Below are positions 8,035 through 40,119 of a stretch of DNA of 64,000 bases, one piece after another (the stretch's first letter is position 1; each line of letters opens with the position of its first letter). The notes below the pieces were generated by a model. It saw only the letters and a program-made list of their open reading frames with translations. It was not told the origin of the DNA and searched no databases. Source of the DNA: an uncultured Porphyromonadaceae bacterium (GTDB lineage Bacteria > Bacteroidota > Bacteroidia > Bacteroidales > Porphyromonadaceae); contig CAMYAB010000003.1 of assembly GCA_947253625.1 (NCBI GenBank), positions 107,105 to 171,104 of the forward strand. Reading direction: 5' to 3'. A program made the position numbers and the translations under genes.

Positions 8035-8124
8035 ATCAGATGATTACAAGTGACTTTGAGTTTCACGGATAGAAGCAAAACTTTTCACGGATAGAAGCAA
8101 TCGTTTGGACGGATAGAAAAAAGT
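8035..8124 (+). repeat. Copy A of a dispersed ~90-110-bp repeat with three 22-bp-phased TTTCACGGATAGAAGC units
   Basis: tttcacggatagaagcaaaac / ttttcacggatagaagcaatcg / tttggacggatagaaaaaag. Reverse-complement copy at 40009-40119. Confidence 0.85.
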
Positions 8125-8570
8125 GGTTGGTTCGTTTTTCTCCCTCATAAAGGGGGGCAACATTTGTTTCCGAATGTAGTCCTGATGGGAAGAGTGTCTT
8201 GGGTGGGTACGAAATAATTTGTTACATTTGCACTGCTTGTTAGGAAATACAGATTTTTTATACAGACAACATACTATTGTTGATCTGCGTGCGTGTCCGA
8301 TTTTTGGGATGGTGTGCAGTGGTGCAATAGACGACCTATTGCAGATCATTGGTCTGCATAGAATCCTAGGTTTTACCTAGGTGACATGATGTTTATTTTG
8401 TTATAGCCATCTACTTTTTCATTGCTTTTATAAGTAGAGACTTTGAGAGCTCATAGCATGCTTGCTGTGGGTTCTCTTTTTTTTAAGGTGACTGTTGTAC
8501 GACGGTATTCGGCCACGTGACCGAATACCGTCCTCGGTTGCGTGGCTATATAGTTTGTCGTGTGGTGAGG

Positions 8571-9875
8571 CTAGAAGTCAAGTGAGAGTCCGGCCACACC
8601 GTCGATGGATAGGTTTTGTGGGTCAAGTTTCTCGTAGGTTCGTCCGAGGGTGGTGAGTTGTTTGGTGACACCCGGCTGTACGAAAAGGCCTACTTTTTTG
8701 GTCAGTGCGTACCTCAGTCCCACTCCACCTCGTACGCTCCAGCGCAAGGTCTTTTCGTTTGGATCACGAGACGGGGTACCCTGGGCCACTATTTTGTTGT
8801 CCGGCATGCTGTAGTAGGTTTGTCGGGAGGTGTGGAGCATTGCTTCGCCCAGTACGGAGACTGCCAGATGTAGGGACCACCTATTGGTCTTGACAAAGTC
8901 GTACCTGAGTGTGAGGGGTATGCCGAGTAGATGGTCGTGGTAGGTAGTTTGGGTGTAGTAGTCTTTGGATCCCTGTTTTAGGTCGGTGCTCTCTTTGGTG
9001 TATAGGATTCCGCTCTCGAGGTAGAGAGAGTGGGTGAGTGGATAGGAGGCTAGTAGGCCGGCACGAATGGGTGGGTGTCGGTGTACACTGATGGCTGTGC
9101 CTTGTGCTTGGTTGTAGAGTGAGATGAGCTCTTGAGCGTTTTTTTCGTCGTCTTGTGTTGGTTTGTCTGTTGCCTCACTTGGATTGTTGTTGTAATCTAT
9201 GACGTTGGATGCTGTGGCATACAGTCCACCATAGCCCTTGATGTTGCTGGCACCTCCCGGTATATTGGAGATCAGCAGGGAGGCACTCATGCGGTGGTGT
9301 GTGTGTGGAGTGTGGGGGAGTGTGGGGTACTTTTTTTGCTCCTGAGCTTGGCTTGCTTGGCTGTCAGTGGTTAGGGCTTTGGCTATGAGGAGAGGGTGGA
9401 GTGGCTGTGTGGTGAGTGGTTTGACTGTGGGTAGTGTAGCCGGTAGTGGGGTGGGTAGTGGTTTTGGCCGAGCTGTGTGGGCAGGTGTATGGTGCGTTTT
9501 TGGGAGGTTGTGTGTGTTGTTTTGATGGGGGTCGGAGAGAGGTGATGGGGTGGGCTTATGTTGTTTTTTTACGTTGTTTGGGGTAGGGGTGTTGGTATTG
9601 GTGATCTGAGCCAATCTGATGTTGGTGGAGGTTGGTACCGATCCGGTGGGTCGGTAGAGTAGCCAAATAAAGAGGAGTGTCGTCGCCGCCACTGACGCCG
9701 GCACCAGCCGCCAAAGGTGTGAGTGGATTTTTTTGGGGTGTGGTGTGTGCTGTACGCCGTCCAGTATGGCGCCCCACATCTCCTCCTCCTCACGGGTGGA
9801 CTGTGGCGCCGCCTCGTACCGATCGAGCTTTGTTTTTAGCTCATCTATCCAATTATTTGCATTGCTCATGGTCAC
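8571..9875 (-). CDS. Anti-sigma factor fused to a C-terminal outer-membrane beta-barrel domain (Pro/Thr-rich linker)
   Basis: N-terminal cytoplasmic anti-sigma-like segment, then one TM helix (WRLVPASVAATTLLFIWLLY). A long P/T/H-rich low-complexity linker follows, then a C-terminal beta-barrel (…GLRYALTKKVGLFVQPGV…GVAGLSLDF, ending in F). The 4-nt ATGA overlap with the upstream ECF sigma gene indicates translational coupling. Confidence 0.6.
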   Translation of the reverse strand: MTMSNANNWIDELKTKLDRYEAAPQSTREEEEMWGAILDGVQHTPHPKKIHSHLWRLVPASVAATTLLFIWLLYRPTGSVPTSTNIRLAQITNTNTPTPNNVKKQHKPTPSPLSDPHQNNTHNLPKTHHTPAHTARPKPLPTPLPATLPTVKPLTTQPLHPLLIAKALTTDSQASQAQEQKKYPTLPHTPHTHHRMSASLLISNIPGGASNIKGYGGLYATASNVIDYNNNPSEATDKPTQDDEKNAQELISLYNQAQGTAISVHRHPPIRAGLLASYPLTHSLYLESGILYTKESTDLKQGSKDYYTQTTYHDHLLGIPLTLRYDFVKTNRWSLHLAVSVLGEAMLHTSRQTYYSMPDNKIVAQGTPSRDPNEKTLRWSVRGGVGLRYALTKKVGLFVQPGVTKQLTTLGRTYEKLDPQNLSIDGVAGLSLDF

Positions 9876-10435
9876 ACTTTGTCTAGATAGTCTTGTATTT
9901 TTTTGGCCAGTATTTTTTTTGCTCTGGCATACTGAGAGGCTGATGTCCCCTCTTTTATTCCGAGTTGGTGGGCCACTTGTTTGTGGCTGAGTCCATCAAT
10001 GGCGTATAGGCAAAAGACGAGACGGTAGCCGGTGGGTAGCTCCTGTATCATCTCCTGTATGGCCTCGGTGGGTACTGAGGCAATATCCGGCTCTGTTTCT
10101 GTGGTCTCCTCCGGTAGGTCGTAGGTTTCGTCGAGCAAAAAAAAGTGTCTCCGACTCCTGATATAGCTGAGAGCTTGGTAGGTGGTCACTTGCTTCATCC
10201 AGGCACGCAGAGATCCTGCGCCTCGGTACTCAAAGGTGTTGATGCTCCGAAAGATCTTGATGAAGCTATCCTGGAGGATGTCCTTGGTGGCATCCGGGTC
10301 CGGTACATACCTATGGCAGACGCCACGTAGAAAGGAGAGATAGGTCTCGTAGAGAGCCTTCATCGCCTCTTGGTCGCCTTGGAGGATACCGCTTAGGAGT
10401 GCTTCATCGTCCCGATCCCATTGTCGTCTACTCAT
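9872..10435 (-). CDS. ECF-type RNA polymerase sigma-70 factor
   Basis: Region 2 (YLSFLRGVCHRY…DILQDSFIKIF) and region 4 HTH (LPTGYRLVFCLYAIDGLSHKQVAHQLGIKEGT). The ORF continues to 10543, but Met37 at 10435 gives a typical ~188-aa ECF sigma. Confidence 0.85.
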   Translation of the reverse strand: MSRRQWDRDDEALLSGILQGDQEAMKALYETYLSFLRGVCHRYVPDPDATKDILQDSFIKIFRSINTFEYRGAGSLRAWMKQVTTYQALSYIRSRRHFFLLDETYDLPEETTETEPDIASVPTEAIQEMIQELPTGYRLVFCLYAIDGLSHKQVAHQLGIKEGTSASQYARAKKILAKKIQDYLDKV

Positions 10436-10700
10436 CCGTGTGGTATTTTTGGGGTGCGTTTTTGGCAGGGCCGGAGCCCTTTGGAGCCTTTTGGGAGATT
10501 TTTTTTGTGGTGAAAAGGTAGCCCCTTTTCGGACAAAGTCCAAAAAGAGGCTACTTCCAATAGGGTGCAGTGAGCGGAGGTAAGGAGAGACGACTGCATA
10601 CTATAAGTTTGATGCTACCTCCTTTTTCGGCAGAAGCCGGGGAGTGGTACTCACTCTCCCTATTGGATAGCTGTGAAGTGTATAGGCATCGTTGATGGCC

Positions 10701-11405
10701 TTAGTGTTTGGGTTCTTCCTTCTTTCCACTAATGTAGTCCAGCTCGATGGTCTGGCTACCGGTTTCGGTGCGGAATCGAATCTTGAGTACCTTTTTTTCT
10801 CCCTTGGTGCTTGGTAGCTGCTTTAGGCTGAAAGCCACCAAGTTTTTGGCCACCATGCGTCCATTTTTGTCCTCTTTGACGTCGTGCCTCAGCTCAAGGG
10901 TGTAGGGATCCTGTGGGTCCACTCCGTAGAGTAGGTTGATGGAGTGCGGTTTTTTGGCATCTCCGTATCGAGCGGCAAAGTTTAGAGTCAGGTATCCATC
11001 CTCGACCAGGCAATCGTTTTTTATGAGACCAATGGGGTCGTTGCCGTACTTTAGATCGTTTTTGTCAGTGGATTGGACCATCTCTTTTGTCAGGATGTCT
11101 TTGATCCAATTGACGTATACAGCTTTGGTAAAGCCATCGTGTGGAGCTTTTTTGTCCTCTTTGTAGTTTACGACGGCTCTCACTTCTTTGTTTTTGAAAG
11201 GATGCGCCTTGATATTGGTGGGCAAAAGGGTGGTTTTTTCATCCAGTTGGAGGTAGACAACCTTTTTGGTGGGTTCGGTCTTGACGGTGACGATACCTAT
11301 GGAGGTCATCTCGTTTTTGGGTCTGTTTTTGTCAAATAGACAGGAGCTCATCATCAGTGTGACACAGAGAGAAGCCAGTGCGATTTGTTTTGTTTTGATC
11401 ATCAT
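10701..11405 (-). CDS. Hypothetical lipoprotein (possibly NigD-like)
   Basis: Signal peptide with a lipobox (LMMSSC). The gene and its flanks are visibly more AT-rich than the neighbours. Confidence 0.5.
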   Translation of the reverse strand: MMIKTKQIALASLCVTLMMSSCLFDKNRPKNEMTSIGIVTVKTEPTKKVVYLQLDEKTTLLPTNIKAHPFKNKEVRAVVNYKEDKKAPHDGFTKAVYVNWIKDILTKEMVQSTDKNDLKYGNDPIGLIKNDCLVEDGYLTLNFAARYGDAKKPHSINLLYGVDPQDPYTLELRHDVKEDKNGRMVAKNLVAFSLKQLPSTKGEKKVLKIRFRTETGSQTIELDYISGKKEEPKH

Positions 11406-11661
11406 AATGTTGAAGTGAATAAAAAAAAAATTAGTGATCTGTCTCTACTATGTAAACGCAGGAGGTATGGATTCCTTGCATCAGTTGTCCAAAAATTGTT
11501 TTTCTATCGGCACACTTGGTATGCGAGAGAGTGGTTGCTTTTTAGGAAAGAAGTGTGTGAAAAGTCCATAATACGGTATATTTTGGATAACTTTACGCTG
11601 TCTGTCGGGAAAGCTCGGCATGGAGACAAGATCAAGCAATAATCAAAACTCAAACAATAGT

Positions 11662-12576: not shown

Positions 12577-12579
12577 GCA

Positions 12580-13488: not shown

Positions 13489-13532
13489 GGTCAAAAAGGG
13501 TGGGGCAGAGTGCGTATCTTGAGACAAATGAG

Positions 13533-13540
13533 TAATTTTG
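13533..13540 (+). promoter_or_regulatory. -7 box TAATTTTG upstream of alaS
   Basis: TAnnTTTG match about 50 bp upstream of the alaS ATG. Confidence 0.4.
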
Positions 13541-13590
13541 CCAAATAGGGTTTGGAGGGTGGCATATAGGAAAGAAACAAACAAGCGAAT

Positions 13591-22578: not shown

Positions 22579-22634
22579 GCAAAAAAGGACTGCTCCCCGG
22601 CCATCTCGGTACGGACAAATAGGAAAAACCCGAT

Positions 22635-22828
22635 GAGCGGGGGCGAAAAGTACTCCCCATGTAGATCCAAACTTTTTCCTCCGGTCGAAAAAGTCCAAAT
22701 CACACTGTGATTTATTCAGATCACTATGTGATTTATTCAAATCACTAAGTGGTTTCTTCAAATCACACAGTGATTTTATCTTTTTCTCCGACACACGTAC
22801 CTTTTTCTCCGACACGGTCGTTTTTTTC
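22635..22828 (+). repeat. Left 194-bp inverted repeat (IR-C) bracketing the MacB-type exporter operon
   Basis: Reverse complement of 28807-29000 with only 2 mismatches. Contains four 21-bp palindromic units (atcacactgtgat…) and two tttttctccgacac units. Confidence 0.9.
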
Positions 22829-22842
22829 AAGGGGAAAAAAAC

Positions 22843-22850: not shown

Positions 22851-22934
22851 TAGATGCCGAGCTTGCGGTGTGTCCCGTATCAGCGACTCTATGAGTGTCC
22901 ACCTTGTACGGTGTGCACAGTGGTGACCAACATT

Positions 22935-23615
22935 ATGATAGCTATGAATCCGGTAATCGAGATCAATGATCTACACAAGACCTACCCCGGAGTGCAGTCT
23001 CTGCATGTCCTCAAGGGGGTTTCACTGCGCATAGACAATGGGGAGATGGTGGCTCTGATGGGGGCCAGTGGATCGGGCAAGAGTACGCTCCTCAATATCC
23101 TCGGGATACTCGACACGTATGATGCAGGCTCCTATCACCTGAGTGGCAAGCTGATTCGGGATTTGGACGAAAACAGTGCGGCCGAGATGCGGGGACGGCA
23201 TATTGGTTTTGTGTTTCAGTCGTTTAATCTCATCAGCTTCAAGAACGCCCTAGAAAATGTGGCTCTGCCACTCTACTACCGAGGGGTCTCCCACAAAGTG
23301 CGCAACAAGCTGGCAGAGGAGTATCTGGACAAAGTGGGGCTTCTGGACTGGAAGGAGCACCTCCCGAATGAGTTGTCGGGCGGACAAAAGCAGAGAGTCT
23401 CCCTGGCAAGAGCACTGATCACCAAGCCGACCATACTCCTTGCCGATGAGCCCACCGGAGCCCTGGACAGCACGACCACCATAGAGGTGATGAATCTGCT
23501 GAGGCAGGTGAATGAGGAGGAGGGTGTGACCATGCTCATCGTCACGCACGAGCCGGCGGTGGCTGAGTGCTGCGAGCGCACGATACACATCAAGGACGGA
23601 CTGATCGTCCGATAA
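22935..23615 (+). CDS. MacB/LolD-type ABC transporter ATP-binding protein
   Basis: Walker A GASGSGKSTLLNILG, signature LSGGQKQRVSLARAL and Walker B LLADEPTGALD. The ORF extends to 22854, but the conserved N-terminus starts at MIAMNPVIEINDL. Confidence 0.85.
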   Translation: MIAMNPVIEINDLHKTYPGVQSLHVLKGVSLRIDNGEMVALMGASGSGKSTLLNILGILDTYDAGSYHLSGKLIRDLDENSAAEMRGRHIGFVFQSFNLISFKNALENVALPLYYRGVSHKVRNKLAEEYLDKVGLLDWKEHLPNELSGGQKQRVSLARALITKPTILLADEPTGALDSTTTIEVMNLLRQVNEEEGVTMLIVTHEPAVAECCERTIHIKDGLIVR

Positions 23616-23623
23616 GGAGGAGG

Positions 23624-24916
23624 ATGAGGATGAGAGTGCCTTTTTTTCAAGAGCTGATCAACTCCCTACACAACAACGTCCTCCGGACCCTCCTCACCGG
23701 CTCGACGATAGCCTGGGGCATTACTCTGCTCATCGTGCTCTTGGGCGTGGGCGACGGGATCGAGAAGGGTATCACCCACACGGCCTACTCGACAGGGCTG
23801 GGGGATGTGCAGATGTCTCTCTATCTCAACAACGCCAATCGCCCCTACGGCGGGTACCAGGATGGGCGGGATCTGTACCTCTCGTCCCGACAGGTGCGGC
23901 AGCTGCAGTCCGCTCAGGCGGCTCGCTACAGAGCGATAGAGCCCTGTTTTCAGAAAATAGGCAACATGGTCAGCACCGCCTATGGAGAGTCGGGGATGAT
24001 GATCGGGACCATCACGGCGCGTGAGCAGATGTTCAACCAAGAGAGGTTGCTTGCGGGGCGACTCTTTACGCCTCGGGAGCATGAGCAGGCAGAGCGAGTG
24101 TGCCTTTTGCCGGACTATGAGGTGTCGCGACTGTTTGTGTCGGGGCAGGACCCGATAGGGCAGAGTGTGATCGTGTGGGGGGTGTCGTTTCGGGTCGTGG
24201 GGACACTGGAGTATAGCAACCCCTACATGGGGATGATGAAGATTCCGTACAACACGTTTGTCGCCCTTTTCCCCAACGATGTCCTGAAGTACAAGATGCT
24301 GAACCTCTACCCTGTCACGAGGGATCAGGAGCTGCTGGCCCAGTGTGAGGAGGAGCTCAAAGCGGATGTGCGCCGTATGCTGACCGTGGATCCACAGGAC
24401 GACCTGTCGGTGACTGTCAGGAGTACGTCAAGTGCGGAGAATGCGATGGCAAAGGCTTTTGTCGGCCTCAAGATCCTACTCTGGGTGATGGGTGTGGGGA
24501 GCTTGTCGATAGGCACGATAGGAGTGACCAATATCATGAGTGTCACGGTCGAGGAGCGTCGTCGCGAGATCGGCATCCGCAAGGCAATAGGCGCTCGCCC
24601 GAGGGATATCCTCACGCTGGTCCTTGGCGAGAGCCTGCTCTTGTCACTCTTTTTCGGAGTGATCGGCATAGGGGTTGGCTACCTGTCGGTGGATATCATC
24701 GGTGACATGGTCGCTCGGCACGGCTGGGCCTCACGACCGATAATGATGGGACTGGACAGCACGACGCAGATCACGATCTTTCGGGATCCGCAGGTCAGCC
24801 CCGGGATGGCTCTTGGGGCTCTGTGCGTACTGGTCATCGCCGGATTGTGGGCCGGCTATGGACCGGCCAAGAAGGCGGTCAGGATACCTGCAGTGGTGGC
24901 TATGAGGGACAAGTAA
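23624..24916 (+). CDS. ABC transporter permease, FtsX/MacB family (1 of 2)
   Basis: N-terminal TM, a large periplasmic MacB-PCD-like domain and a C-terminal FtsX 4-TM domain with IGIRKAIGA. GGAGG RBS-like sequence before the ATG at 23624. Confidence 0.75.
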   Translation: MRMRVPFFQELINSLHNNVLRTLLTGSTIAWGITLLIVLLGVGDGIEKGITHTAYSTGLGDVQMSLYLNNANRPYGGYQDGRDLYLSSRQVRQLQSAQAARYRAIEPCFQKIGNMVSTAYGESGMMIGTITAREQMFNQERLLAGRLFTPREHEQAERVCLLPDYEVSRLFVSGQDPIGQSVIVWGVSFRVVGTLEYSNPYMGMMKIPYNTFVALFPNDVLKYKMLNLYPVTRDQELLAQCEEELKADVRRMLTVDPQDDLSVTVRSTSSAENAMAKAFVGLKILLWVMGVGSLSIGTIGVTNIMSVTVEERRREIGIRKAIGARPRDILTLVLGESLLLSLFFGVIGIGVGYLSVDIIGDMVARHGWASRPIMMGLDSTTQITIFRDPQVSPGMALGALCVLVIAGLWAGYGPAKKAVRIPAVVAMRDK

Positions 24917-24925
24917 GCAGGCAAC

Positions 24926-26206
24926 ATGATGATGAAGCGGTTTTTGAATCACGAAGTACGTCAGGAGATCTGGTACACGATCCGCGCCAATAAGCGTCGC
25001 ACACTGATGACAAGCCTGGGGGTCTTTGCGGGGATGTTTTTCTTCACCTTCCTGACCGGCATTGGGCAGGGGATCGAAAACTCCATCAGAGCCAATCTGG
25101 AGACCAGTTCGTCCGAGATGCAGATGATTTTTGGCTCTCGCACCACAATGCCCTACCAAGGCTACAAAGCCAATCGGCAGATCACGACCACCTATGGCGA
25201 CTTTCTCGCCCTAAAGAAGCAAGCGACCCTTATCGACAAAATAGAGGGGACAGCCGGATTTGGAGGCAGAGTGGACTCAAACACGACACGCGTAATAGCC
25301 AATGGTAAGAGCCAAGAAGAAAACGTCCAAGGGGTGTCCGCCGGCTACATACCCAATATCCTCCAAGCCATCGTGGTAGCCGGCCGATACATGCATCCCG
25401 ACGAGATCGACAGAGGCGAAAACATCTGCGTCATCGGGACAAACACCAGTGTGAAGTTCTTTGACACCTACGAGGAGGCAGTGGGGCAGTACATGATCAT
25501 ATCCGGTATCGCTTTTAGGATCGTTGGAGTGATGACACCCTACTCCGATGCCGCAAATATCGGATTCAACCTCAAGTACGTCACCTTGGTACCCCTTGTC
25601 TTTGCAGTCAACAACTCCCCCAACGCCGCCTGCCAGTTCCCATTTGTCCGCAAGCCCGGTGTGACTCCGGATGCCGCCGCCGATCAGATGATCACCCTCC
25701 TCTCCGCCCGCCACCATGTGCATCCGGAGGACAAAAAGGCCTTTGTGACGGTGAGTATGCAGATGATCACTCGTATCTTTGAGATGGTGGTCAACGTCAT
25801 CAATGTCCTAGTCTGGGTAGTCGCACTGGGCACGCTCTTCTCTGGAGTAATCTCTGTGTCCAATATCCTCCTCGTCACAGTCAGAGAGCGACAGCGCGAG
25901 ATCGGAGTGCGGCGCGCCATCGGTGCCAAGCCGTCGGATATCCGCTGGCAATTCATGCTCGAGTCCATCCTCATCATCCTCCTTGCCGGATCAGCGGGAA
26001 TGCTTGTGGCGCTGACCCTGAACCTCGGGATCGGGGCCCTGGCTGATGCGACACAGCTGGGAAACTTCATCCAAGCCCCATACCCGTCGCCACTCATGAT
26101 GGTGCTCTCGGTCATCATCATGCTGCTATCCGGACTGCTGGCCGGACTGCTACCGGTACACCAAGCACTAAAAATCAAGGCAATAGACGCCATAAGAGAC
26201 GAATAA
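24926..26206 (+). CDS. ABC transporter permease, FtsX/MacB family (2 of 2)
   Basis: Same architecture as the first permease. Conserved REIGVRRAIGAKPSDI. Confidence 0.75.
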   Translation: MMMKRFLNHEVRQEIWYTIRANKRRTLMTSLGVFAGMFFFTFLTGIGQGIENSIRANLETSSSEMQMIFGSRTTMPYQGYKANRQITTTYGDFLALKKQATLIDKIEGTAGFGGRVDSNTTRVIANGKSQEENVQGVSAGYIPNILQAIVVAGRYMHPDEIDRGENICVIGTNTSVKFFDTYEEAVGQYMIISGIAFRIVGVMTPYSDAANIGFNLKYVTLVPLVFAVNNSPNAACQFPFVRKPGVTPDAAADQMITLLSARHHVHPEDKKAFVTVSMQMITRIFEMVVNVINVLVWVVALGTLFSGVISVSNILLVTVRERQREIGVRRAIGAKPSDIRWQFMLESILIILLAGSAGMLVALTLNLGIGALADATQLGNFIQAPYPSPLMMVLSVIIMLLSGLLAGLLPVHQALKIKAIDAIRDE

Positions 26207-26234
26207 TAATCCCCAAAATATCCCCCCAAAAGCT

Positions 26235-27356
26235 ATGGCAAAGAATAGCAAAAGCAAAGTAATCTCCATCCTCCTCCGATGCCTCGTCGGCTTAGTGGCC
26301 ATCGGCATACTCGGGCTGGTCCTCTCCAAGTCCAAGAAAAAAGAAAACGAGTACGAGCTACTGAGCCCCACACCGGGTGACAGCATCATTCACAGCACCA
26401 TCCTGACCGGCAATATCCAGCCTCGAGACGAAGTGCTTGTCAAGCCACAGATGAGCGGTATCGTGGCTGAGCTGCTGCACCTACCGGGCGATATGGTCCG
26501 CGAGGGGGATCTGATAGCACGCATACGTATGATCCCGGACGTAGCCTCCGTCCAAAACGTAGCCTCACGAGTCGAGAGTGCGCGAGTGGCGCTCCGCACA
26601 GCATACGATGTCTACCGCCGCGACAGCCTGCTGATGGCCCAAAACATCCTCTCCGCAGAGCGCTACGAGCAGAGCAAAGGAGCCTACGACCGTGCGGTCA
26701 TCGACCTCGTCACAGCACAGGAGCAACTACAGCTGGCCAGCAAAGGATCCAGCAACCGCACCGCCAACCAAAACAACACCCTCGTCCGCGCCACAGTGAG
26801 TGGGGTCATCCTGGATCAACCCGTGAAAGTCGGATCCAGTGTCATCCAGGCCAACAACTTCAACGAAGGCACCACCATCGTGAGCATTGCCGACCTAAAC
26901 GACCTCCTTTTTGTCGGTAATGTCAACGAAAGCGATGTCAACAAAGTACAGGTAGGAGCTCAAGTCCGCCTCAAGGTAGGCGCCATCACCGGCCGGACCT
27001 ATCCCGCAATCGTAGAGTACGTCTCTCCCAAAGGCAAAGAGACCACCGGCACCATACTATTTGAGGTCAAGGCGGCCCTACAAGCCGGTGACCTCAGCGA
27101 CCTCAAAGCCGGATTTTCGTGCAACGCCGAAGTGGAGCTAGACCGTCGCACAGACGTCCTGACCATCCCCGAGAGTGCCATCTCCTACGAGGGCGACCAA
27201 GCCTACGTCTACCTCTCCAATGGAGGCAACACCGACAGTAGCTTCACCAAGCATGCCATCCAAGTCGGCCTCTCCGATGGACTAAAAATCGAAGTCCTAT
27301 CCGGACTGAGTGGCACAGAAAAGCTCCGTGGAAACCTACTCAGCATCAAAAAATAA
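26235..27356 (+). CDS. HlyD/MacA-family periplasmic adaptor (membrane-fusion protein)
   Basis: N-terminal TM, coiled-coil segment and a lipoyl/beta-barrel MFP fold (…RATVSGVILDQPVKVGSSV…). Confidence 0.75.
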   Translation: MAKNSKSKVISILLRCLVGLVAIGILGLVLSKSKKKENEYELLSPTPGDSIIHSTILTGNIQPRDEVLVKPQMSGIVAELLHLPGDMVREGDLIARIRMIPDVASVQNVASRVESARVALRTAYDVYRRDSLLMAQNILSAERYEQSKGAYDRAVIDLVTAQEQLQLASKGSSNRTANQNNTLVRATVSGVILDQPVKVGSSVIQANNFNEGTTIVSIADLNDLLFVGNVNESDVNKVQVGAQVRLKVGAITGRTYPAIVEYVSPKGKETTGTILFEVKAALQAGDLSDLKAGFSCNAEVELDRRTDVLTIPESAISYEGDQAYVYLSNGGNTDSSFTKHAIQVGLSDGLKIEVLSGLSGTEKLRGNLLSIKK

Positions 27357-27363
27357 GCCGACC

Positions 27364-28731
27364 ATGAGACCAGCCACCCACACCCTACTCCTCCTAGCGC
27401 TCCTCCTTGTACCGGCATCCCTATCGGCCCAGGAGCTCAAGCCCACCATGACCCTCGTGGAGTGCGTCGACTATGCACAGGCACACAGCCCACTGCTCCT
27501 ATCACTCGACCCCAAAATCGAGAGCATGCGACTAAACGAAGCTCTCGCCACGCAAGCCTTTTTGCCCAACCTCAACGCCGGACTTGGACAAAATGCTTCC
27601 TTCGGCAGATCGCAGGGCAAGGATGGCGTCTTCCGTGACCTCTCCAACACCAACACCTCCCTATCCATCTCGGCACAGCTGGACCTCATACAAGGCGGTG
27701 CCAGGTGGTGGAGCCTGAAAAAAGCCAAAGAGACCCTCAAGACCACAGACTACCTCATCGCCGACACCAAGGACAACATCGCACTCAAGACCACCCAAGA
27801 CTACATCACCCTACTCCTCGCAAGGCAGATGGTCACAGTGGCAAAAGAAAACCTCACCCTCTCCGAACAACAGCTCCACGAGACAGAGCGGCAGGTCACC
27901 GCAGGCAAGCTACCCGTCTCCAACCGTATTCAGGTACAGAGCCAAGTCGGACAAGCACGACTCACACTAGCCGAGGCCGAGGCCGATGCCGAGCGAGCCA
28001 TGCGCCTACTCCTTCTGGGAATGGGCGTCACCGATCGTGCCACCACCCTCACCACACCACAGTACGCCATCGACCAAGTAGCCACCCACAACGACCAACT
28101 CTCCACCTGCCGGCGAGACCCACTATGGGTACGACCCGATACACGACTAGCCGAGCTCAACGCCAACCTAGCCGACTACGACATCAAGCGTGCCAAAGCA
28201 GCCTACTGGCCAGCACTCTCGCTCAACGCCGGATACTCCAACGGCTACTACTACAACTTTGGCACCCACCTCCTCACAAGCACCAACATCCCCTTTGCCG
28301 ACCAACTCCGCCAAAATGGACGAACCTACGTCGGACTCTCACTCACCATCCCCATCTACAACAGAGGACAGCTCCAAGGACAGGTACGACAAGCCAAGCT
28401 CCTACAAATGAACCTCCGGACACAGTACATCCAAAAATCCTACCAAGACGAGCAAAACATACTCCTAGCCGAGTCCGACCTCCAAAAAGCACAAGGGCAG
28501 TGTACCCTATCGGCCGAAAACCTCAACCTCACACGCCAAGCACTCAATATCGCAGACCTGGAGTACCGAGCCGGCAAGATCACAACCTACGAGTGGGAGC
28601 AGGCCAAAAACAAACACATACAGGCACAAATACAGTACGCCACGTCCGTCTACACGAGGTTGCTCAGGAGCATCACCCTCCGATACTTCTATACCGGCCG
28701 ACTAGACTTCTCCGAGGTATTAGCCGACTAA
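27364..28731 (+). CDS. TolC-family outer-membrane efflux protein
   Basis: Signal peptide and two tandem TolC repeats (…LTLVECVDYAQAHSPLL… and …ADLEYRAGKITTYEWEQ…). The ATG at 27364 follows the HlyD stop. Confidence 0.8.
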   Translation: MRPATHTLLLLALLLVPASLSAQELKPTMTLVECVDYAQAHSPLLLSLDPKIESMRLNEALATQAFLPNLNAGLGQNASFGRSQGKDGVFRDLSNTNTSLSISAQLDLIQGGARWWSLKKAKETLKTTDYLIADTKDNIALKTTQDYITLLLARQMVTVAKENLTLSEQQLHETERQVTAGKLPVSNRIQVQSQVGQARLTLAEAEADAERAMRLLLLGMGVTDRATTLTTPQYAIDQVATHNDQLSTCRRDPLWVRPDTRLAELNANLADYDIKRAKAAYWPALSLNAGYSNGYYYNFGTHLLTSTNIPFADQLRQNGRTYVGLSLTIPIYNRGQLQGQVRQAKLLQMNLRTQYIQKSYQDEQNILLAESDLQKAQGQCTLSAENLNLTRQALNIADLEYRAGKITTYEWEQAKNKHIQAQIQYATSVYTRLLRSITLRYFYTGRLDFSEVLAD

Positions 28732-28806: not shown

Positions 28807-29000
28807 GAAAAAAACGACCGTGTCGGAGAAAAAGGTACGTGTGTCGGAGAAAAAGATAAAATCACTGTGTGATTTGAAGAAACCACTTAGTGATTTGAAT
28901 AAATCACATAGTGATCTGAATAAATCACAGTGTGATTTGGACTTTTTCGACCGGAGAAAAAAGTTTGGATCTACATGGGGAGGACTTTTCGCCCCCGCTC
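28807..29000 (+). repeat. Right 194-bp inverted repeat (IR-D), reverse complement of IR-C
   Basis: 192 of 194 positions identical to the reverse complement of 22635-22828. Confidence 0.9.
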
Positions 29001-29053
29001 GTTGAGTTTTTGGAGTTGGTGTGTTGCGGTGAAAGTGGGTAGGCTCAATTTAC

Positions 29054-34266: not shown

Positions 34267-36009
34267 TCAGTGAAAGTCCTTGTAGAGCAAAGCGCTGTCT
34301 CGGGGTATGGCGGTCTGCATCCACTGTGTGGGGACAAATTGCCACCGGCTGACTGTGTGCGGGGTGTAGGGATCGTTTTTGCTCAAATACTCGCTGAGGT
34401 AGTATCGGATATCATACTCAGATACTGCCACTCGCCTGGAGTCGATAGAGTCTGTGGGGATGCCGGCGCCTTGTGTCAGTAGTCCGCCGCCACCGTTCCC
34501 TCGATAGGAGTTGAGTACCACCAGGTAGGTTTGGTCGTCTGAGAAGGCGGATCCATCTGCCATCGAGGAGATGACCACCCGTTGGCCTCTGGGTTTGGAG
34601 AGGTCGACGGAGTAGATGATCCCCGCAGCTGTGTCAAAGTTGAAGCTGGGTCCCGCCAGAGGCAGATAGAGGCCGCCACGCTTCTTTTCGTTGATTTTCA
34701 GCATCGGGTCGTCGGGTCCGGACATGGTGTGGTAGAGGCGGTCGTAGCTCTCCTCGAGGTGACCACGTAGCTCTTTGCCGGACAGTCGCATGAGGTAGGC
34801 TCGATTTTCGTACTTGTATAGGCGAAAGAGGTCACCCACGACTAGGTCGCCCTTGGGAATGCATGTGTTTTCGGCGAGAGGTGCGGTGATAGAGACTTGG
34901 GCCTGAGGAAAGAGTCCGAGCTGTACTTCGTGTATGAGGTCGACGAAAGGTGTGGGGCGGAAAAAGGCACCACGGCTCTCCATGGTCTCCGTGACGTGCC
35001 CCACTCGCTTTGAGACATAGTCCAGGACGCGGTTTCGATGCGGGGTGAAGTTTTGGACAAAAAGTGACTGTGGTGCGATGGTGTCCATGGAGACGATGCG
35101 TGGACGGATGGCTTTTTCACCGTTTTTGCCAAAAACAACGGTGGCGTGTGCCACGGCATCAGCGTTTGGTCCGGGGTTGAGTAGATAGGTGGTGTGGTTG
35201 TCATCGTGCACGATGGAGTCCACGTAGGTGCGGTGGTCGTGTCCACATAGGACGAGGTCCAGCTCGGGTATCTCTCGGGCCAGTGCGTAGCCTACATTCT
35301 CGGGGTCATAGGGTAGGGCTGGGTCTTTGGGTCCTGCTCCGCTGTGGATGAGTGCTATGATCAGGTCGGGGTGAGCCTCTAGGATCTCCGGCAGATAGCG
35401 CTTGGCTGTCTTCACCTGATCGTCAAAGCGGATGCCACTCCAGAGGACTTCCGGCAACTGATGGACGAGTTCCGGTGTGATGAGACCGAGTATGGCCACC
35501 TTTTTGTCGCCCTTGGTGACCAGTGTGTAGGGCTTGAAGTAGGACACCATGCTCAGGGTGTCGTCGGGGTTTTGGGTCCGGATGGCGTTGGCGGCAAGGA
35601 AGGGAAAGTTGGCCTCCCGTACGAGTCGGTCGTAGACCGAGTGCCCGGTCTCTATATCGTGGTTGCCGACAGTGAAGGCATCGTACTGCATGTAGTCGAG
35701 GATCTGCATGGCGACATGCGGAGCCAAGGTGTCTATGTAGTTGTAGAAATAGGCTGCCGGCTGACCTTGCAGGAGGTCACCAGCATCCACCAGTACCACG
35801 GGTTCGCCTTGGAGTCTGTAGTGTGCCACGTAGCTCTGTACGCGTGCCAGACTGCCGGTGGAGGGGCAGTCGTTGAGCAGGTCTTGGGAGAAGTAATTGC
35901 CATGCACGTCGGTTGTCTGGATGATCTCCAGTACAGTGGTGCTTGTTTTTTCTTGGCAACCTATGAGGAGTAGGAGGAGAGCCGCTGAGGCTATGAGGTG
36001 TCGTTTCAT
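34267..36009 (-). CDS. Bifunctional metallophosphatase / 5'-nucleotidase (UshA-like) lipoprotein
   Basis: Lipobox (LLIGC). TTDVHGN, GDLLQG and VGNHD phosphoesterase motifs. 5'-nucleotidase C-terminal domain. Confidence 0.8.
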   Translation of the reverse strand: MKRHLIASAALLLLLIGCQEKTSTTVLEIIQTTDVHGNYFSQDLLNDCPSTGSLARVQSYVAHYRLQGEPVVLVDAGDLLQGQPAAYFYNYIDTLAPHVAMQILDYMQYDAFTVGNHDIETGHSVYDRLVREANFPFLAANAIRTQNPDDTLSMVSYFKPYTLVTKGDKKVAILGLITPELVHQLPEVLWSGIRFDDQVKTAKRYLPEILEAHPDLIIALIHSGAGPKDPALPYDPENVGYALAREIPELDLVLCGHDHRTYVDSIVHDDNHTTYLLNPGPNADAVAHATVVFGKNGEKAIRPRIVSMDTIAPQSLFVQNFTPHRNRVLDYVSKRVGHVTETMESRGAFFRPTPFVDLIHEVQLGLFPQAQVSITAPLAENTCIPKGDLVVGDLFRLYKYENRAYLMRLSGKELRGHLEESYDRLYHTMSGPDDPMLKINEKKRGGLYLPLAGPSFNFDTAAGIIYSVDLSKPRGQRVVISSMADGSAFSDDQTYLVVLNSYRGNGGGGLLTQGAGIPTDSIDSRRVAVSEYDIRYYLSEYLSKNDPYTPHTVSRWQFVPTQWMQTAIPRDSALLYKDFH

Positions 36010-38162
36010 CGGATGCAGTGCAGTTCGGAGGTGATGCGATCGGCGCCTAGGACACGATCCAGGACAAAGACGACATAGCGGATGTCGCAGATGATGCTAC
36101 GCTGGTAGTCGGGTAGGTAGTTGATATCGCCACCGACCCCCTCCCAGTTGCGGTCAAAGTTGAGCCCCACCAAGTACCCCTCGCCATTGATCACCGGGCT
36201 GCCGGAGTTGCCACCGGTAGTGTGGGTCGTGGCACAAAAGTTGACCGGCATCTTGCCATCCTCGCGGGCCAATCGGCCAAAGTCCCGGGACCGAAATAGG
36301 TCTACGATATTGGGTTGTAGCCCAAACTCATAGTCACCCGGTACGACCTTCTCGAGTACGCCATCAGTGGTGGTCATCGGGCCGTAGTAGACATTGTCTC
36401 GTGGCGAATACCCCTTTACGGTTCCAAATGTGTACCTCAGGGTGAGGTTGGCATCCGGCCATAGGTTTTCGTCCCCCTTCATACGCATGATGCCCTGGAC
36501 GTATAGGTGCCTTGCTGCGGCGAGAGTGCGGTACAGAGGGCGCATGGCCTCCTGGGCATCGCTGTTGGCGTTGTGCACGGCCTCTGCCAGCATGACGGCC
36601 GGGTCTTGTAGGTACTGCTCGTAGGTGTAGGATTGTAGAGCGGACTTGAGGTGTTGGGGATCTCGGTAGATCGTGGTGGAGTAGACGAGGTCTGCATATC
36701 GGTCGGTGTCGTCTATTAGATCAAAGATCCCTGTGCGCTTGTCCTTTTCCTTGAAGGCTTTGAGGAGTGCCTTGGTTACCTTTTTGTCCACTTCGGCGCT
36801 GTAGTCGTTGTCAAAGTGGTGTCGGTACTTATTCTCTATCCAGCTATTGAGCAGTGTCTCGTCAGCCTGTAGTTTGGCCAGCTCTTCTTGGTCTTTTATC
36901 CGTGGCAGTCGTATGAGTTCGCTACCTTGTATGAGCCCTTCGTTGAGCAGCTTGTAGGTGTATCGGTAGGGTCGTATCTCCTGTATGGTGGCCTCTATCT
37001 TGTCCATTGCTGCGATGTAGACCGGTAGCTTGTTTTTCAGGGCCCACTGTCGGAGCTGCTGCATTTCGGCCTGTTTTCGTCCGGCAAAGTCGAGCTTGTC
37101 GATGGCCCAGTTGGACCCTATCGCCCGTTTGTGTCCGTTGGCTGAGTAGGCATACTTGGCGGCGTAGCGGATGTTGGTCTGCTCGTCACGCATCATCTCC
37201 TCGAGCATCACCTTTTGGCGGATATCCCTCATCTCTATCCGCACATCGTTGTCCACGTCGTGAAATAGGCGTACCTCCGGAGCGGTAAAGAAGTGGTTGG
37301 TCGTACCCGGGTGCCCCATGATCATGACGAAGTCATCTGGTTTTACGCCACGGAGGTCTATCTTGAGGTAGTTTTTGGGCTTGAGTGGTACGTTCTCTGG
37401 AGCATACTCTGCGGGAGAGCCATCGGGTGCGGTGTAGATCCTGAAGATCGAAAAATCCCCGGTGTGTCGTGGCCAGGTCCAGTTGTCCGTGTCGGCTCCA
37501 AACTTGCCTATGCCGGATGGTGGTGCGGCCACCAGTCGGACATCACGATACTCGCGTCGCACGTAGAGGTAGTACTTGTTGCCTTCAAAAAAAGGCTTCA
37601 GATCCAGTCGGAGTCCCGCTGTCGTCTCACCTCTGTGCTCGCTATACCAGCGATCGGCGATGCGCCGGAGGTACTGCTGAGAGAGGATCACCATGAGGTC
37701 CTCTTCACCGTCTTTGGCTGTGTAGTCCTGTACGTAGTCCGTGAGGTCAATGATCTCTTCGGTAAAGGTGACTTTCAGTCCGGGGTTGGGCAGCTCATCT
37801 GCCAATCCCGGGGCATAAAACCCATCCCGTAGGTAGTTGTGCTCGATCGTGCTGTGCATCTGTATTTGGTCATAGCCACAGTGGTGGTTGGTGAGCACGA
37901 GTCCGTTGGGCGAGACCACTTCTCCGGTGCATCCGCTCCCAAAGAGTACCACGGCATCCATCAGCATAGGGTCACCGGTGGTGTTGTATAGCTGTTCGGC
38001 TCGGAGCTTTAGCCCCATCTTTTGCATCTTGTCATAGTTTTGTTTTCGGACAAGTGGGAGCAGCCACATTCCCTCGTCGGCACGTGCCATGGGGACGAGT
38101 AGGATCGAGACGATCAGTAGCGTCAGGGCTCTATGGGCTTTGGTCAGTAGGTTGTTATTCAT
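36006..38162 (-). CDS. S46-family dipeptidyl-peptidase (DPP7/DPP11-like)
   Basis: Signal peptide followed by the DEGMWLLP N-terminal hallmark. Chymotrypsin-fold catalytic residues (TNHHCG …GGNSGSPV). Confidence 0.85.
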   Translation of the reverse strand: MNNNLLTKAHRALTLLIVSILLVPMARADEGMWLLPLVRKQNYDKMQKMGLKLRAEQLYNTTGDPMLMDAVVLFGSGCTGEVVSPNGLVLTNHHCGYDQIQMHSTIEHNYLRDGFYAPGLADELPNPGLKVTFTEEIIDLTDYVQDYTAKDGEEDLMVILSQQYLRRIADRWYSEHRGETTAGLRLDLKPFFEGNKYYLYVRREYRDVRLVAAPPSGIGKFGADTDNWTWPRHTGDFSIFRIYTAPDGSPAEYAPENVPLKPKNYLKIDLRGVKPDDFVMIMGHPGTTNHFFTAPEVRLFHDVDNDVRIEMRDIRQKVMLEEMMRDEQTNIRYAAKYAYSANGHKRAIGSNWAIDKLDFAGRKQAEMQQLRQWALKNKLPVYIAAMDKIEATIQEIRPYRYTYKLLNEGLIQGSELIRLPRIKDQEELAKLQADETLLNSWIENKYRHHFDNDYSAEVDKKVTKALLKAFKEKDKRTGIFDLIDDTDRYADLVYSTTIYRDPQHLKSALQSYTYEQYLQDPAVMLAEAVHNANSDAQEAMRPLYRTLAAARHLYVQGIMRMKGDENLWPDANLTLRYTFGTVKGYSPRDNVYYGPMTTTDGVLEKVVPGDYEFGLQPNIVDLFRSRDFGRLAREDGKMPVNFCATTHTTGGNSGSPVINGEGYLVGLNFDRNWEGVGGDINYLPDYQRSIICDIRYVVFVLDRVLGADRITSELHCIR

Positions 38163-38643
38163 GGTTGGTGTTCCAGGTCGTGTAGGGGTGCTGGGCGAGG
38201 TTGTTATTCAGGTACTTGGGGTCATTGGAGATCTCCCTGCCTATCCACTCCGGTAGGTTGACGGGGGTGTCGAGTGAGGGAAGCTCCACCTCAGCGAGGA
38301 TGAGCCCCTCATTTTCTTCTTCAAAAAAGTCGACCTCCCACAGCATGCCATCCAGGTGGATGTTGTGCCGTTGCTTGCGGATGATGTGGTAGGGGCTGAG
38401 TGCGAGTAGCTCCAGTGCATCCTCCACAGGGATACTGTACTCGTACTCATCGCGTACAGCCGGTTGGTCCGACGACGCATGCTTGATGGTGATAAAGGCC
38501 TGGTCCTGATCCACCACCCTCACTCGTATGCTCAGTCCTTTGCTATTGAGCAGATAGCCTTGGCGGAAGTGATGGATACTGTCGGAGTCCGGCAGAGGTA
38601 CTCCCTCTTTTAGTAAAAATCGTCTCTCTATCTCTATACCCAT
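38155..38643 (-). CDS. CYTH-domain protein (triphosphate tunnel metalloenzyme)
   Basis: The EIERRFLL N-terminal EXEXK-like motif defines CYTH. Confidence 0.7.
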   Translation of the reverse strand: MGIEIERRFLLKEGVPLPDSDSIHHFRQGYLLNSKGLSIRVRVVDQDQAFITIKHASSDQPAVRDEYEYSIPVEDALELLALSPYHIIRKQRHNIHLDGMLWEVDFFEEENEGLILAEVELPSLDTPVNLPEWIGREISNDPKYLNNNLAQHPYTTWNTNHE

Positions 38644-38660
38644 GTCTCTTTTTATCTCAC

Positions 38661-39740
38661 TTATCTCACGGTTACTTGTGTCGCTCCGAATCCATACTCC
38701 TGAAACGAAGCATCCCTCACCTCACAGCGTGGGTACTCACGTCCAAGCAGTGCCAGTACCTGCTGACGCAGCACCCCATTTCCCTTGCCGTGGATGAAGA
38801 CAATCTGCATCCCCTTGTCCTTTGGCTTGCTGTAGTGTCGCATCGTCTTGCGCACCTCCTCCAGCTGGTAGTCCAGTAGCTCCAGGTGTGTCATCCCGGC
38901 GGTGGTGTCGAGGAGTTGGTCGATATGGAGATCCACCACCAGGGGGCTTGCCTTTTGGAGTCGAGCACCCTCACGGCGACGCTTATCCGGCCGGGGCTCC
39001 GGTGCCATTTTTTCCATCATGGCTTCGGCAAGTTTTGTGGGGTCCACCTTTCGGGCCGCGACGGGGCGATCGTCCTGCACTATGGGGTAGACAAGAGCGG
39101 CGTCGTCAAAAAAGTCGTTGGGTACAAAGGCGTTTTTCTTGAAAAACTTCATCCCCTCCACCTTTACCTCAGCCACCACGGGCTCTTTGCGTGCAAAGGG
39201 GCAATCCGCCATGAAGGGGATCACCACCAGGGAGGTGCGGGCACGGTCGTCCAGCTCACGAGGTGTAAAGGTCTCCAGCAACTCGATGCTGTCGAACCCC
39301 ACCACTCCCATATACCTCACCTGCCGTCGGTCATCACGCCCCGTGGCATAGTACACGTAGAGGTCGTAGGAGGAGTTGTTGACCAAGTAGGCCTCATACA
39401 GCCCTTCACCCAGAGGCTTCCCCTCCTCCGGCAAGTAGCAGAGGTAGGCATTGATCCTGGTTCGATCCTTGGGTCGCACACGATCGGAGCGTGGCTCGGA
39501 GAGGATGGGCGATGGCTGACGCTCGGTGCGCTCGGGGGCACTCTTGCCGGTGGTACTCTGCACCTTGGGCACTATCGTACTCCCCTCGGTCACGACCACC
39601 ACCTCGTGTGCAAAAAAGGGTAGCTCAAAGCCCGACTCATCCCGAACCAGCACTTTGCCATCACTGGATACTTCGGTCACCACTCCACCACCCACACTGT
39701 TCAGAAAGCGAACCAAGTCGCCTTTGCGTACATCACTCAT
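38661..39740 (-). CDS. Smr-domain protein (DUF2027 N-terminal + Smr C-terminal)
   Basis: C-terminal VVDLHIDQLL…QIVFIHGKGNGVLRQQVLALL Smr nuclease-like domain. Confidence 0.7.
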   Translation of the reverse strand: MSDVRKGDLVRFLNSVGGGVVTEVSSDGKVLVRDESGFELPFFAHEVVVVTEGSTIVPKVQSTTGKSAPERTERQPSPILSEPRSDRVRPKDRTRINAYLCYLPEEGKPLGEGLYEAYLVNNSSYDLYVYYATGRDDRRQVRYMGVVGFDSIELLETFTPRELDDRARTSLVVIPFMADCPFARKEPVVAEVKVEGMKFFKKNAFVPNDFFDDAALVYPIVQDDRPVAARKVDPTKLAEAMMEKMAPEPRPDKRRREGARLQKASPLVVDLHIDQLLDTTAGMTHLELLDYQLEEVRKTMRHYSKPKDKGMQIVFIHGKGNGVLRQQVLALLGREYPRCEVRDASFQEYGFGATQVTVR

Positions 39741-40008
39741 ATACTATACTGTCTTCTACATGTTGGGCGTGTTGCGCCAAGCACCACTCTTCCGCATTCA
39801 CCGAAGTCCTGCTCCGAATCCGGTCCGGAGCAGATCGCTTGGGCGCAACAGTCTCGTAATAGTGATACAAATATACCAAACAATTATCGACCAATCGTTT
39901 CCCCACTTGCCCCCCTACGAGACTGTCGAGAGGAGCCTCTGCCGGTGCGACTCCTCCGAGGGGTGTCGGAGGGGCTTTGGGGGTATGGACAAACCGAGGA
40001 ACGTTTTT

Positions 40009-40119
40009 CCCTCTATCCGTCTGAGTGATGGCTTCTATCCGTGAAAAGTTTCGCTTCTATCCGTGAAAACTTTTGCTTCTATTCGTGAAACTCGAGGTGC
40101 TGTGTAAGTATTTGATTGT
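40009..40119 (-). repeat. Copy B of the TTTCACGGATAGAAGC-array repeat (reverse orientation relative to copy A)
   Basis: On the plus strand: cttctatccgtgaaaag ×3-4 with 22-bp phasing. The reverse complement aligns with 8035-8124, including about 35 bp of flank. Confidence 0.85.

Follow-up and report, generated by a model that had tools for sequence, protein, structure and literature searches.

The window analysed here is the whole 64,000-nt stretch of contig CAMYAB010000003.1 (assembly GCA_947253625.1, positions 107,105 to 171,104, forward strand) of an uncultured Porphyromonadaceae bacterium; the subject is an intergenic element present in it as two inverted copies 32 kb apart, each made of a leader of about 38 nt and an array of three or four direct 22-bp units. 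Copy 1 is situated in the gap of 1161 bp that separates dus (6423–7409, + strand) from the convergent gene of a beta-barrel outer-membrane protein (8571–9875, −), next to which comes an ECF sigma factor gene. Copy 2 has on its two sides the divergent genes of a DUF2027-Smr protein (38661–39740, −) and an AMP-binding acyl-CoA ligase (+), the start of the latter falling at 40307 by open reading frame (ORF) and at about 40397 by the gene call. The element is a genuine repeat family, previously undescribed, of a general kind that is already known. The host chromosome is that of a Bacteroidota member of the Porphyromonas group and is characterized by the tmRNA tag GENNYALAA, by DUF2027, peptidase S46, NigD and SusC/D proteins and by a G+C content of about 55%; the best named homologs of the window proteins are Porphyromonas proteins.

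Array copies and coordinates

The 16-mer TTTCACGGATAGAAGC was found exactly at 8061 and 8083 (+) and at 40031–40046 and 40053–40068 (−), with a one-mismatch copy at 40075–40090 (−); at ≤3 mismatches, 5 occurrences were observed in the window against 0.34 expected, and 0 of 100 shuffles equalled that count. The search with the 9-nt core ACGGATAGA gave one more degenerate terminal unit per array (8109–8117 and 40012–40020), and Tandem Repeats Finder returned a period of 22 for 8061–8118 and 40031–40090. The inverted-repeat arms 8023–8118 and 40033–40128 (96 nt) are 79% complementary, with a further 57-nt arm at 89%; the longest exact stretch common to both copies is 21 nt. Both copies are collinear (leader, units A and B, degenerate unit), copy 2 having one extra unit:

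8023–8060 (+): leader of copy 1, delimited by homology with the leader of copy 2
8061–8126 (+): array 1, three head-to-tail 22-bp units, TTTCACGGATAGAAGCAAAACT, TTTCACGGATAGAAGCAATCGT and the degenerate TTGGACGGATAGAAAAAAGTGG
40091–40128 (−): leader of copy 2, delimited by homology with the leader of copy 1
40003–40090 (−): array 2, four head-to-tail 22-bp units, TTTCACGAATAGAAGCAAAAGT, TTTCACGGATAGAAGCGAAACT, TTTCACGGATAGAAGCCATCAC and the degenerate TCAGACGGATAGAGGGAAAAAC

The first-pass annotation of this DNA had described an inverted pair of 22-bp-phased arrays of three to four units, both intergenic; the arrays proved real, they hold 3 and 4 units, the coordinates given were right to within about 10–15 nt, and the copies do lie in the dus gap and in the divergent Smr/ligase region. 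The two leaders are identical at 26 of 38 positions (p ≈ 0.004 against shuffles); the similarity of the tails that follow the window arrays was not significant.

Unit anatomy, leader sites and conservation

The in-register alignment comprised fourteen units: 7 of the window, 6 of Porphyromonadaceae bacterium FC4 and 1 of the relative L042. Across these three lineages positions 5–12 (ACGGATAG) and A18 are invariant, TTT (1–3) and AAG (13–15) nearly so, and positions 19–22 are free; the unit has a 15-nt core, TTTCACGGATAGAAG, and spacers of 6–7 nt, and its layout can also be read as an invariant core of 9 nt with 13 nt after it, at fixed spacing. The genome scan used the pattern ACGRATAGAR twice, hence the core conservation is partly ascertained; TTTC, G15 and A18 lie outside the pattern. 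Comparison of copy with copy in the window gave 4 mismatches in 45 core positions, all of them in the degenerate end units, against 21 in 59 positions of spacers and leader (Fisher p = 0.002 in one register, 0.0006 in the other). Gene conversion would homogenise the spacers too, yet only the cores are conserved in the window, which argues for selection on the core. The leaders have diverged by about 32% with the cores intact, and the copies were taken as old.

Each leader contains an exact match to the IHF-type core consensus WATCARNNNNTTR, 14 nt before unit 1: AATCAGATGATTA at 8034–8046 (+) in copy 1 and AATCAAATACTTA at 40105–40117 (−) in copy 2. Exact matches to WATCARNNNNTTR number 3 across the 64 kb, two of them being these leader sites at the same offset; all specified positions are kept in both, and 2 of the 4 N positions differ.

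RNA folding of the arrays, on either strand, was no better than that of shuffles (z from +0.5 to −1.2), which favours recognition at the DNA level; no exact −7 box was found upstream of either window array. A structured RNA or a CsrB-like protein-sponge RNA fits neither the fold z-scores nor the lack of an upstream −7 box; the CsrB match near the arrays is at chance level (10.8 bits, E = 1.4). Among Rfam-type RNA families in the window tmRNA alone passed the threshold, the matches near the arrays being at chance level only.

Downstream promoters and neighbouring genes

TAnnTTTG is the Bacteroidota −7 consensus; it occurs 34 times in the window on both strands, about once per 3.8 kb per strand. 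Both arrays are followed by such a box in the direction of their units; inspection by eye for sigma-54 −24/−12 elements between array and transcript gave none. The features concerned are:

7407, 7567, 7578, 7669, 7692, 7747 and 7757 (cluster 7407–7765; no strand assigned to the cluster): DnaA-box-like 9-mers, about 270 nt left of array 1
8223–8230 (+): consensus −7 box TACATTTG, 105 nt past the last core of array 1, oriented like its units
8237–8484 (+): candidate non-coding RNA, ORF-free and strongly structured, with an intrinsic terminator at its end; 5' end placed from the −7 box only
34267–39740 (−): Smr operon, delimited by Pfam and gene calls, adjacent genes overlapping at stop/start codons
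39868–39875 (−): Smr operon promoter, with its consensus −7 box TATATTTG 136 nt past the last core of array 2, facing the same way as its units

Candidate RNA 8237–8484: the fold of 8240–8490 has −78.1 kcal/mol (z = −4.5), a value that none of 200 shuffles reached; the terminator scan placed the intrinsic terminator of the roughly 250-nt RNA at a stem at 8445–8476 followed by a T run. No credible small ORF was found within 8120–8500, and no Rfam family matched 8237–8484, which is a candidate new small RNA. When the sequences that follow copy 1, copy 2 and the two FC4 arrays (L015, L012) were compared as possible homologous non-coding RNAs, no significant similarity emerged.

DnaA-box cluster: the sequences are TGATCCACA, two tandem TTTCCACA-type boxes on the − strand, TTATGCACA, CTTTCCACA, TTATCCACA and GTTTCCACA; 6 of the 9 relaxed DnaA boxes of the window fall inside 7407–7765. 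The flanks of the cluster are AT-rich; on the right-hand side of copy 1, 8200–8480 has 34–42% GC. The cumulative GC skew, taken at fine scale, is lowest at about 7950–8050. The region 7407–7765 is a candidate chromosomal oriC or DnaA-binding region, situated in a gap that the relatives lack.

Smr operon: the genes are DUF2027-Smr (38661–39740), CYTH (38155–38643), peptidase S46 (36006–38162) and Metallophos/5'-nucleotidase (34267–36009). The promoter block AATTGTTTGGTATATTTGT is kept in the 71%-identical ortholog locus L042. The 5' untranslated region (UTR) of about 120 nt contains a long hairpin at about 39770–39850 (fold z = −2.4), formed by GTTGCGCCCAAGCG…GTGCTTGGCGCAAC within 39770–39855 (−); the UTR begins with GAGACTGTTGCG (39844–39855), one mismatch from the terminal repeat of ISPg4/MITE-PgRS (MITE, miniature inverted-repeat transposable element), and 39770–39855 may be a small MITE-derived leader.

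Arrays in relatives

FC4 (LT635553.1) was the only relevant genome among the matches listed in the genome scan, the others listed being mostly chance or unrelated tandem repeats. It has two arrays, at about 1,274,439 (+, L012) and about 1,349,569 (−, L015), at sites non-orthologous to the window copies and with the core at 22-bp phase; these two are separated by about 75 kb and are inverted and convergent, like the 32-kb pair of the window, and FC4 has at least two copies, to be set beside two within the 64 kb of the window. Array L012, a mosaic of TTTGACGGATAGAAG and TTTCCAGTAGGAAA units, lies between mfd and the pst operon (pstSCAB-phoU-phoB), with an exact forward TAnnTTTG of pstS about 185 nt past its last core. 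Array L015 consists of three TTTCACGGATAGAAG units at 22-bp phase after the 3' end of the fumarate hydratase gene and is followed by a structured stretch of about 340 nt that contains no ORF. Between proteins of FC4-like organisms and the window orthologs identity is only about 68–83%, so the core has either been conserved well beyond neutral expectation or spread horizontally. Between FC4 and a strain with 99% PstS identity the array differs by exactly one 22-bp unit, and the first unit has been converted toward the neighbouring unit type; a one-unit indel between close strains is minisatellite behaviour.

At the orthologous Smr locus arrays are present in three roughly equidistant lineages (68–73% Smr identity): that of the window, with forward TTTCACGGATAGAAGC units; L042, with a ACGGATAGC unit and a CCAGTAGGA unit in reversed orientation about 100 nt from the conserved promoter; and L043, with a different 23-bp unit, TTTAGTTGGGAACAAA. 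The more distant L044 (54%) has no array upstream of its Smr operon; a related 23-bp array (…CGATAGGGAA…) stands about 90 nt before the −7 box of its tRNA-Arg gene. At the dus locus of relatives with 82–83% and 72% identical Dus the gaps are 266 and 152 bp, with other downstream genes and no array, so the 1.16-kb dus gap is specific to the lineage of the window. The first-pass annotation had held that a pair without further copies or orthologs would point to sporadic duplication; the copies in FC4 and the related arrays at the Smr locus of two relatives speak against such an origin, although the dus locus of the relatives is without any array.

Every array found is intergenic. The assemblies retrieved for the window species are all identical over both intergenic regions and are thus uninformative on variation of unit number in that species; four short-read contigs (L003, L042, L043, L051) end in or at arrays. 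The metagenome contig scan gave 3 unrelated loci only, the viral contig scan and the plasmid and phage BLAST searches (plasmid set, 72,556 records) no matches, and a literature search on the motif string only unrelated primers. Kangiella-like contigs (L021, 1640–1750; L035, 1150–1260) contain 5 tandem 21–22-bp units TTACGGATAGAAG(T/A)CGCG beside AT-rich DNA; the 11-mer that these share with the core is probably a chance match due to the design of the search pattern.

Interpretation and alternatives

From the existence and phase of the arrays, the conservation of core versus spacer, the genus-level spread, the one-unit indel and the position relative to the −7 boxes, all of them direct results, we infer the binding of a protein, the kind of protein and an effect on transcription: the element would be a lineage-specific, duplicating intergenic cassette of predicted sites for a clade-conserved DNA-binding protein, modulating downstream promoters. 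This is the account that we prefer, and we hold it tentatively. The cassette would comprise the leader of about 38 nt with its IHF-like bend site, a gap of 14 nt and three to four direct repeats of 22 bp, each with its 15-nt core as the site for a sequence-specific protein of the Porphyromonas-related clade. A spacing of 22 bp is about two helical turns, so all sites would lie on one face of the helix and side-by-side, head-to-tail protomers are possible; one protomer would occupy each unit, possibly helped by the bend at the leader site. Placed about 90–190 bp upstream of consensus promoters, the cassette would most likely act as an upstream module, either an activator/operator platform or a roadblock/insulator; in the window the promoters concerned would be those of the structured non-coding transcript and of the Smr-CYTH-S46-5'-nucleotidase operon. 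The arrays would change by gain, loss and conversion of units and be duplicated or moved among intergenic regions, as is BrickBuilt, the Porphyromonas gingivalis minisatellite compared below. The protein-binding array of the first-pass annotation survives in this general form, being in line with the core conserved relative to spacers, the exact phase, the core in FC4 and the lack of RNA structure; the specific classes proposed there did not fare as well, as the alternatives below show.

Several points weigh against the cassette. Domain scans of the window ORFs gave the ECF sigma factor as the sole regulator gene and no binding protein. The distance to the −7 box is variable (105–185 nt) and beyond that of classical activators or repressors; no forward −7 box was found downstream of array L015, and the L042 units face the opposite way relative to the same promoter. 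The pstS promoters of four relatives have a canonical Pho-box-like motif and no array; they use that motif alone, so the array is dispensable at pstS. The whole dus gap is absent from relatives. Only 14 units were available, partly ascertained through the search pattern itself, and conservation of their core could stem from recent spread of a mobile element and not from a host function. The IHF consensus, finally, is an Escherichia coli rule and may not hold for the HU/IHF-like proteins of Bacteroidota.

Neutral minisatellite: the arrays may be what is left of the interior of a decayed BrickBuilt-like MITE, once moved in trans by an ISPg-type transposase of the IS5 family. They would have no host function, and their cores would seem conserved only through recent spread or gene conversion. 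We consider this unlikely, although it is the strongest of the alternatives. The differences in unit number and the unit conversion between close FC4 strains speak for it, as do the non-orthologous intergenic sites, the occurrence of either orientation at the Smr locus and the breaking of the four short-read contigs at arrays, and BrickBuilt is a precedent (PMC4596501). ISPg-type terminal-repeat-like sequences stand near several arrays: GAGACCTGTGGCA at 73 nt from the L042 units, a perfect GAGACCATTGCAAAATGGTCTC about 90 nt from the L043 23-bp array and, in the window, GAGACTGTTGCG at 39844–39855 and GAGACTTTTGGA 10 nt past a further array at 48991–49068. Such 12-mers are, however, no commoner in the window than chance would give (33 against 33.3 expected), the similarity of the window leaders to the terminal-repeat-bearing leader of L042 is not significant, no target-site duplication was seen by inspection at the outer edges of the inverted repeat, and the window has no transposase gene. 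The unit sequence is unrelated to that of BrickBuilt, the copies are old by their leader divergence with cores still intact, and conversion would have evened out the spacers as well as the cores. The ancestor may have been a MITE, in view of the terminal-repeat-like sequences by the arrays of relatives and the palindromes of FC4-like genomes described below.

Dedicated operators: the units may be classical operators of one factor (a LytTR/OmpR response regulator or an AraC-type protein), the downstream transcripts being its regulon; this appears improbable. LytTR-type operators are 9–10-bp direct repeats with 12–13-bp spacers, a layout matched by the 9-nt invariant core plus 13 nt at a 22-bp period; the cores are conserved relative to the spacers, both window copies stand upstream of promoters in the same orientation, and arrays are kept upstream of the Smr operon in three lineages. 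Yet the arrays end 105–136 nt from the −7 box and not beside the −33 region, and the response-regulator or AraC-type sites of the first-pass annotation were not borne out as operators abutting a promoter; the orientation is reversed in L042, the pstS promoters of relatives keep their Pho-box-like motif without an array, and no such regulator gene is nearby. Nor was the consistent functional class of downstream genes found for which that annotation had allowed: the targets are a non-coding RNA candidate, the Smr operon and pstS, with none identified for L015.

Docking platforms: by analogy with CtrA, MtrA and Spo0A, the arrays behind IHF-like sites might be docking platforms, at the origin and at promoters, for a clade-conserved nucleoid-associated protein or master response regulator; we regard this as a long shot. 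The convergent pairs (32 kb in the window, 75 kb in FC4) could then mark borders of chromosomal domains, and the 21–23-bp brick families of Porphyromonadaceae would be fast-evolving cis-elements co-evolving with a protein family.

Replication-linked sites: iteron-like or regulator sites of a chromosomal origin, or polar sites bracketing an origin-proximal domain, have only a slim chance of accounting for the arrays. Copy 1 does lie between the DnaA-box cluster and the AT-rich 8200–8480, at a local GC-skew minimum, and this order of DnaA boxes, IHF-like site, 22-bp repeats and AT-rich DNA recalls RK2 and R6K. In Bacteroidota oriC is commonly distant from dnaA (PMC4755523), which would suit such a position, and the convergent inverted pairs of the window and FC4 (at least two arrays) would suit a bracketed domain. 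Against this, no DnaA-box cluster is near copy 2 or either FC4 array, the FC4 "pair" may be incomplete as the genome has two or more arrays, and the oriC call depends on the skew over 64 kb, which follows gene strand as well and cannot establish an origin. The iterons proposed in the first-pass annotation lack their initiator, no rep-type gene being present in the window, and the plasmid and phage collections gave no match.

Inversion: the copies are homologous and inverted relative to each other, and the first-pass annotation had taken the 32-kb interval as a potential substrate for homologous inversion; inversion, whether homologous or site-specific, is hardly credible. The arms have just 96 nt at 79% identity with no exact stretch longer than 21 nt, the window has no recombinase gene, and 8 of 8 dus-junction contigs and about 10 Smr-junction contigs have the arrangement of the window with identical sequence and no alternative junction, the assemblies being nearly clonal and hence a shallow sample.

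Transposon ends: Tn7/Mu-type ends have several 22-bp transposase or integrase sites per end, inverted and often by an IHF site, and the 3 + 4 inverted sites behind leaders with IHF-like sites resemble them; such ends, or the arm-type sites of an integrated element, can nevertheless be set aside almost entirely, because the interior (8.1–40 kb) consists of alaS, miaA, aroB, transporters and the Smr operon without transposase or integrase, the flanks outside the arms have no direct target-site duplication, and the FC4 interior begins with the pst operon.

Pho box and parS: a Pho box, to be expected as 11-bp direct repeats across the upstream promoter element, was considered in view of array L012 upstream of pstSCAB-phoU-phoB and of the CYTH and 5'-nucleotidase genes of the window operon, and was rejected because the pstS promoters of relatives have a different, canonical-looking Pho box and no array. 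The ACGGATAGA array at pstS is confined to the FC4 lineage among the relatives compared, about 185 nt upstream, whereas the motif TGTAACAnnnnYGTAAYAC is common to the pstS promoters of L036–L041 and FC4, where it immediately precedes the −7 box; in L040 the position of the FC4 array is taken by an unrelated array of TTTCAC/GTGAAA palindromes. A literature search for a Bacteroidota Pho box gave nothing relevant. The unit has GTTTCACG in common with parS; no parS (TGTTTCACGTGAAACA, ≤3 mismatches) was found in the window.

The TGTAACAnnnnYGTAAYAC direct repeat lies about 60 nt upstream of pstS in L036–L041 and L012/L050. It precedes pstSCAB-phoU-phoB and is a likely PhoB site for Porphyromonas-group bacteria.

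Other repeats and features

First repeat family: a 205-nt inverted repeat (22624–22828 / 28807–29011, 98% identity) brackets a MacB-type ABC efflux operon (22854–28731). Each arm contains four 21-bp palindromes AAATCACnnnGTGATTT and two CTTTTTCTCCGACAC; the left arm adjoins the −7 box TATCTTTG of the efflux operon, and the right arm runs antisense into the end of the operon.

Third array: 48991–49068, also 22-bp-phased, consists of GAAACTnnAGTTTC palindromes; placed where the genes of RNase HII and GH92 converge, it forms a hairpin of 37 nt with 92% complementarity. The unit, TTTCACTCCGTAGAAAC, is similar to the TTTCACGGATAGAAGC-family core, and the array is followed by the IS5/ISPg-type terminal-repeat-like GAGACTTTTGGA at 49079–49090.

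Palindromes of relatives: in FC4-like genomes short GAGACCATTG…CAATGGTCTC palindromes are numerous, both between genes and at the 3' ends of genes (L043, 1–150; L045, 4454–4480, 5350–5420 and 6830–6900; L046 likewise), which look like paired ISPg1-type terminal repeats.

Division and cell-wall genes: the cluster (regions 3115–5954 and 42640–47181) is split, ftsA-ftsZ following mutS and the tmRNA gene (2538–2949), and ftsW-murG-murC, with an unannotated 254-aa ORF (46417–47181, no Pfam match) at the ftsQ position, lying 37 kb away after the acyl-CoA ligase.

Significance

Porphyromonas-group genomes are, to our knowledge, rich in intergenic 21–23-bp tandem arrays, of which BrickBuilt is the only one studied. 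The present family offers a cleaner case, with short arrays, a sharp 15-nt core that recurs in different genus-level lineages, an IHF-like site alongside and a defined promoter geometry; the sharply defined cross-lineage core makes the question of what reads the bricks testable, and FC4, which bears a strain designation, may be cultivable. If no protein binds, the arrays would count as a second minisatellite lineage, an older one, and as sites at which metagenome assemblies break. The arrays are neither an inversion switch nor a Pho box nor a plasmid origin, and annotators should not regard the 32-kb interval as invertible.

Comparison with known systems

LytTR-type operators and the phased FIS arrays of rRNA and tRNA promoters are similar in structure, having a short asymmetric core on one helical face and a position upstream of promoters, in the case of the related L044 array a tRNA promoter. 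They differ from the present arrays in that the promoter distance and orientation are not fixed here and no cognate regulator was found; we know of no Fis in Bacteroidota.

Plasmid iterons (R6K gamma, RK2 oriV, pSC101), which are 17–22-bp direct repeats in helical phase, likewise have 3–7 direct repeats at a 22-bp period with an adjacent IHF site, and resemble copy 1 in being flanked by DnaA boxes and, on the opposite side, by AT-rich DNA, and the family as a whole in the occurrence of further arrays elsewhere in other orientations. Unlike iterons, the window arrays are chromosomal, among essential genes, without a Rep gene (no Rep-family domain was found among the scanned window ORFs) and without similarity to plasmid records; copy 2 and the FC4 arrays lack origin features.

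BrickBuilt is a strictly intergenic 23-nt minisatellite of P. gingivalis with leader and tail, IS5-type terminal repeats and about 19 copies (Klein et al. 2015, PMC4596501); its unit number is strain-variable, and it has promoter activity in E. coli reporters (PMC4596501). In P. gingivalis W83 intergenic tandem direct repeats of 22, 23 and 41 nt are on record (cited in PMC4596501). The present family has in common with BrickBuilt the bacterial family, a strictly intergenic location, head-to-tail units of about two helical turns (22 versus 23 nt), a unique leader beside the units, copies dispersed at unrelated loci by promoters, a strain-variable unit number and, in relatives of the window, IS5/ISPg-type terminal-repeat-like sequences near some arrays. 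The differences are: unit TTTCACGGATAGAAGCAAAACT here versus the BrickBuilt consensus AGACCATAGTATCCTCTCATATG, the two sequences being unrelated (the window unit and the BrickBuilt_5 unit in the supplement of PMC4596501 have only the pentamer TATCC/GGATA in common); period 22 and not 23; 3–5 units versus up to 22.8; a conserved core with variable spacer versus near-identical whole units; and a core that spans genus-level lineages, BrickBuilt being confined to P. gingivalis and P. gulae. The window leader is not shared with FC4 and has only the 10-mer GGGCCAAAAA in common with that of L042, and no BrickBuilt IS5-type terminal repeats (GAGACCTTTGCA ... TGCAAAGGTCTC) bound the inverted-repeat arms of the window. 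Judged by its unit sequence and period, the window element is BrickBuilt-like in kind, yet stands outside that family.

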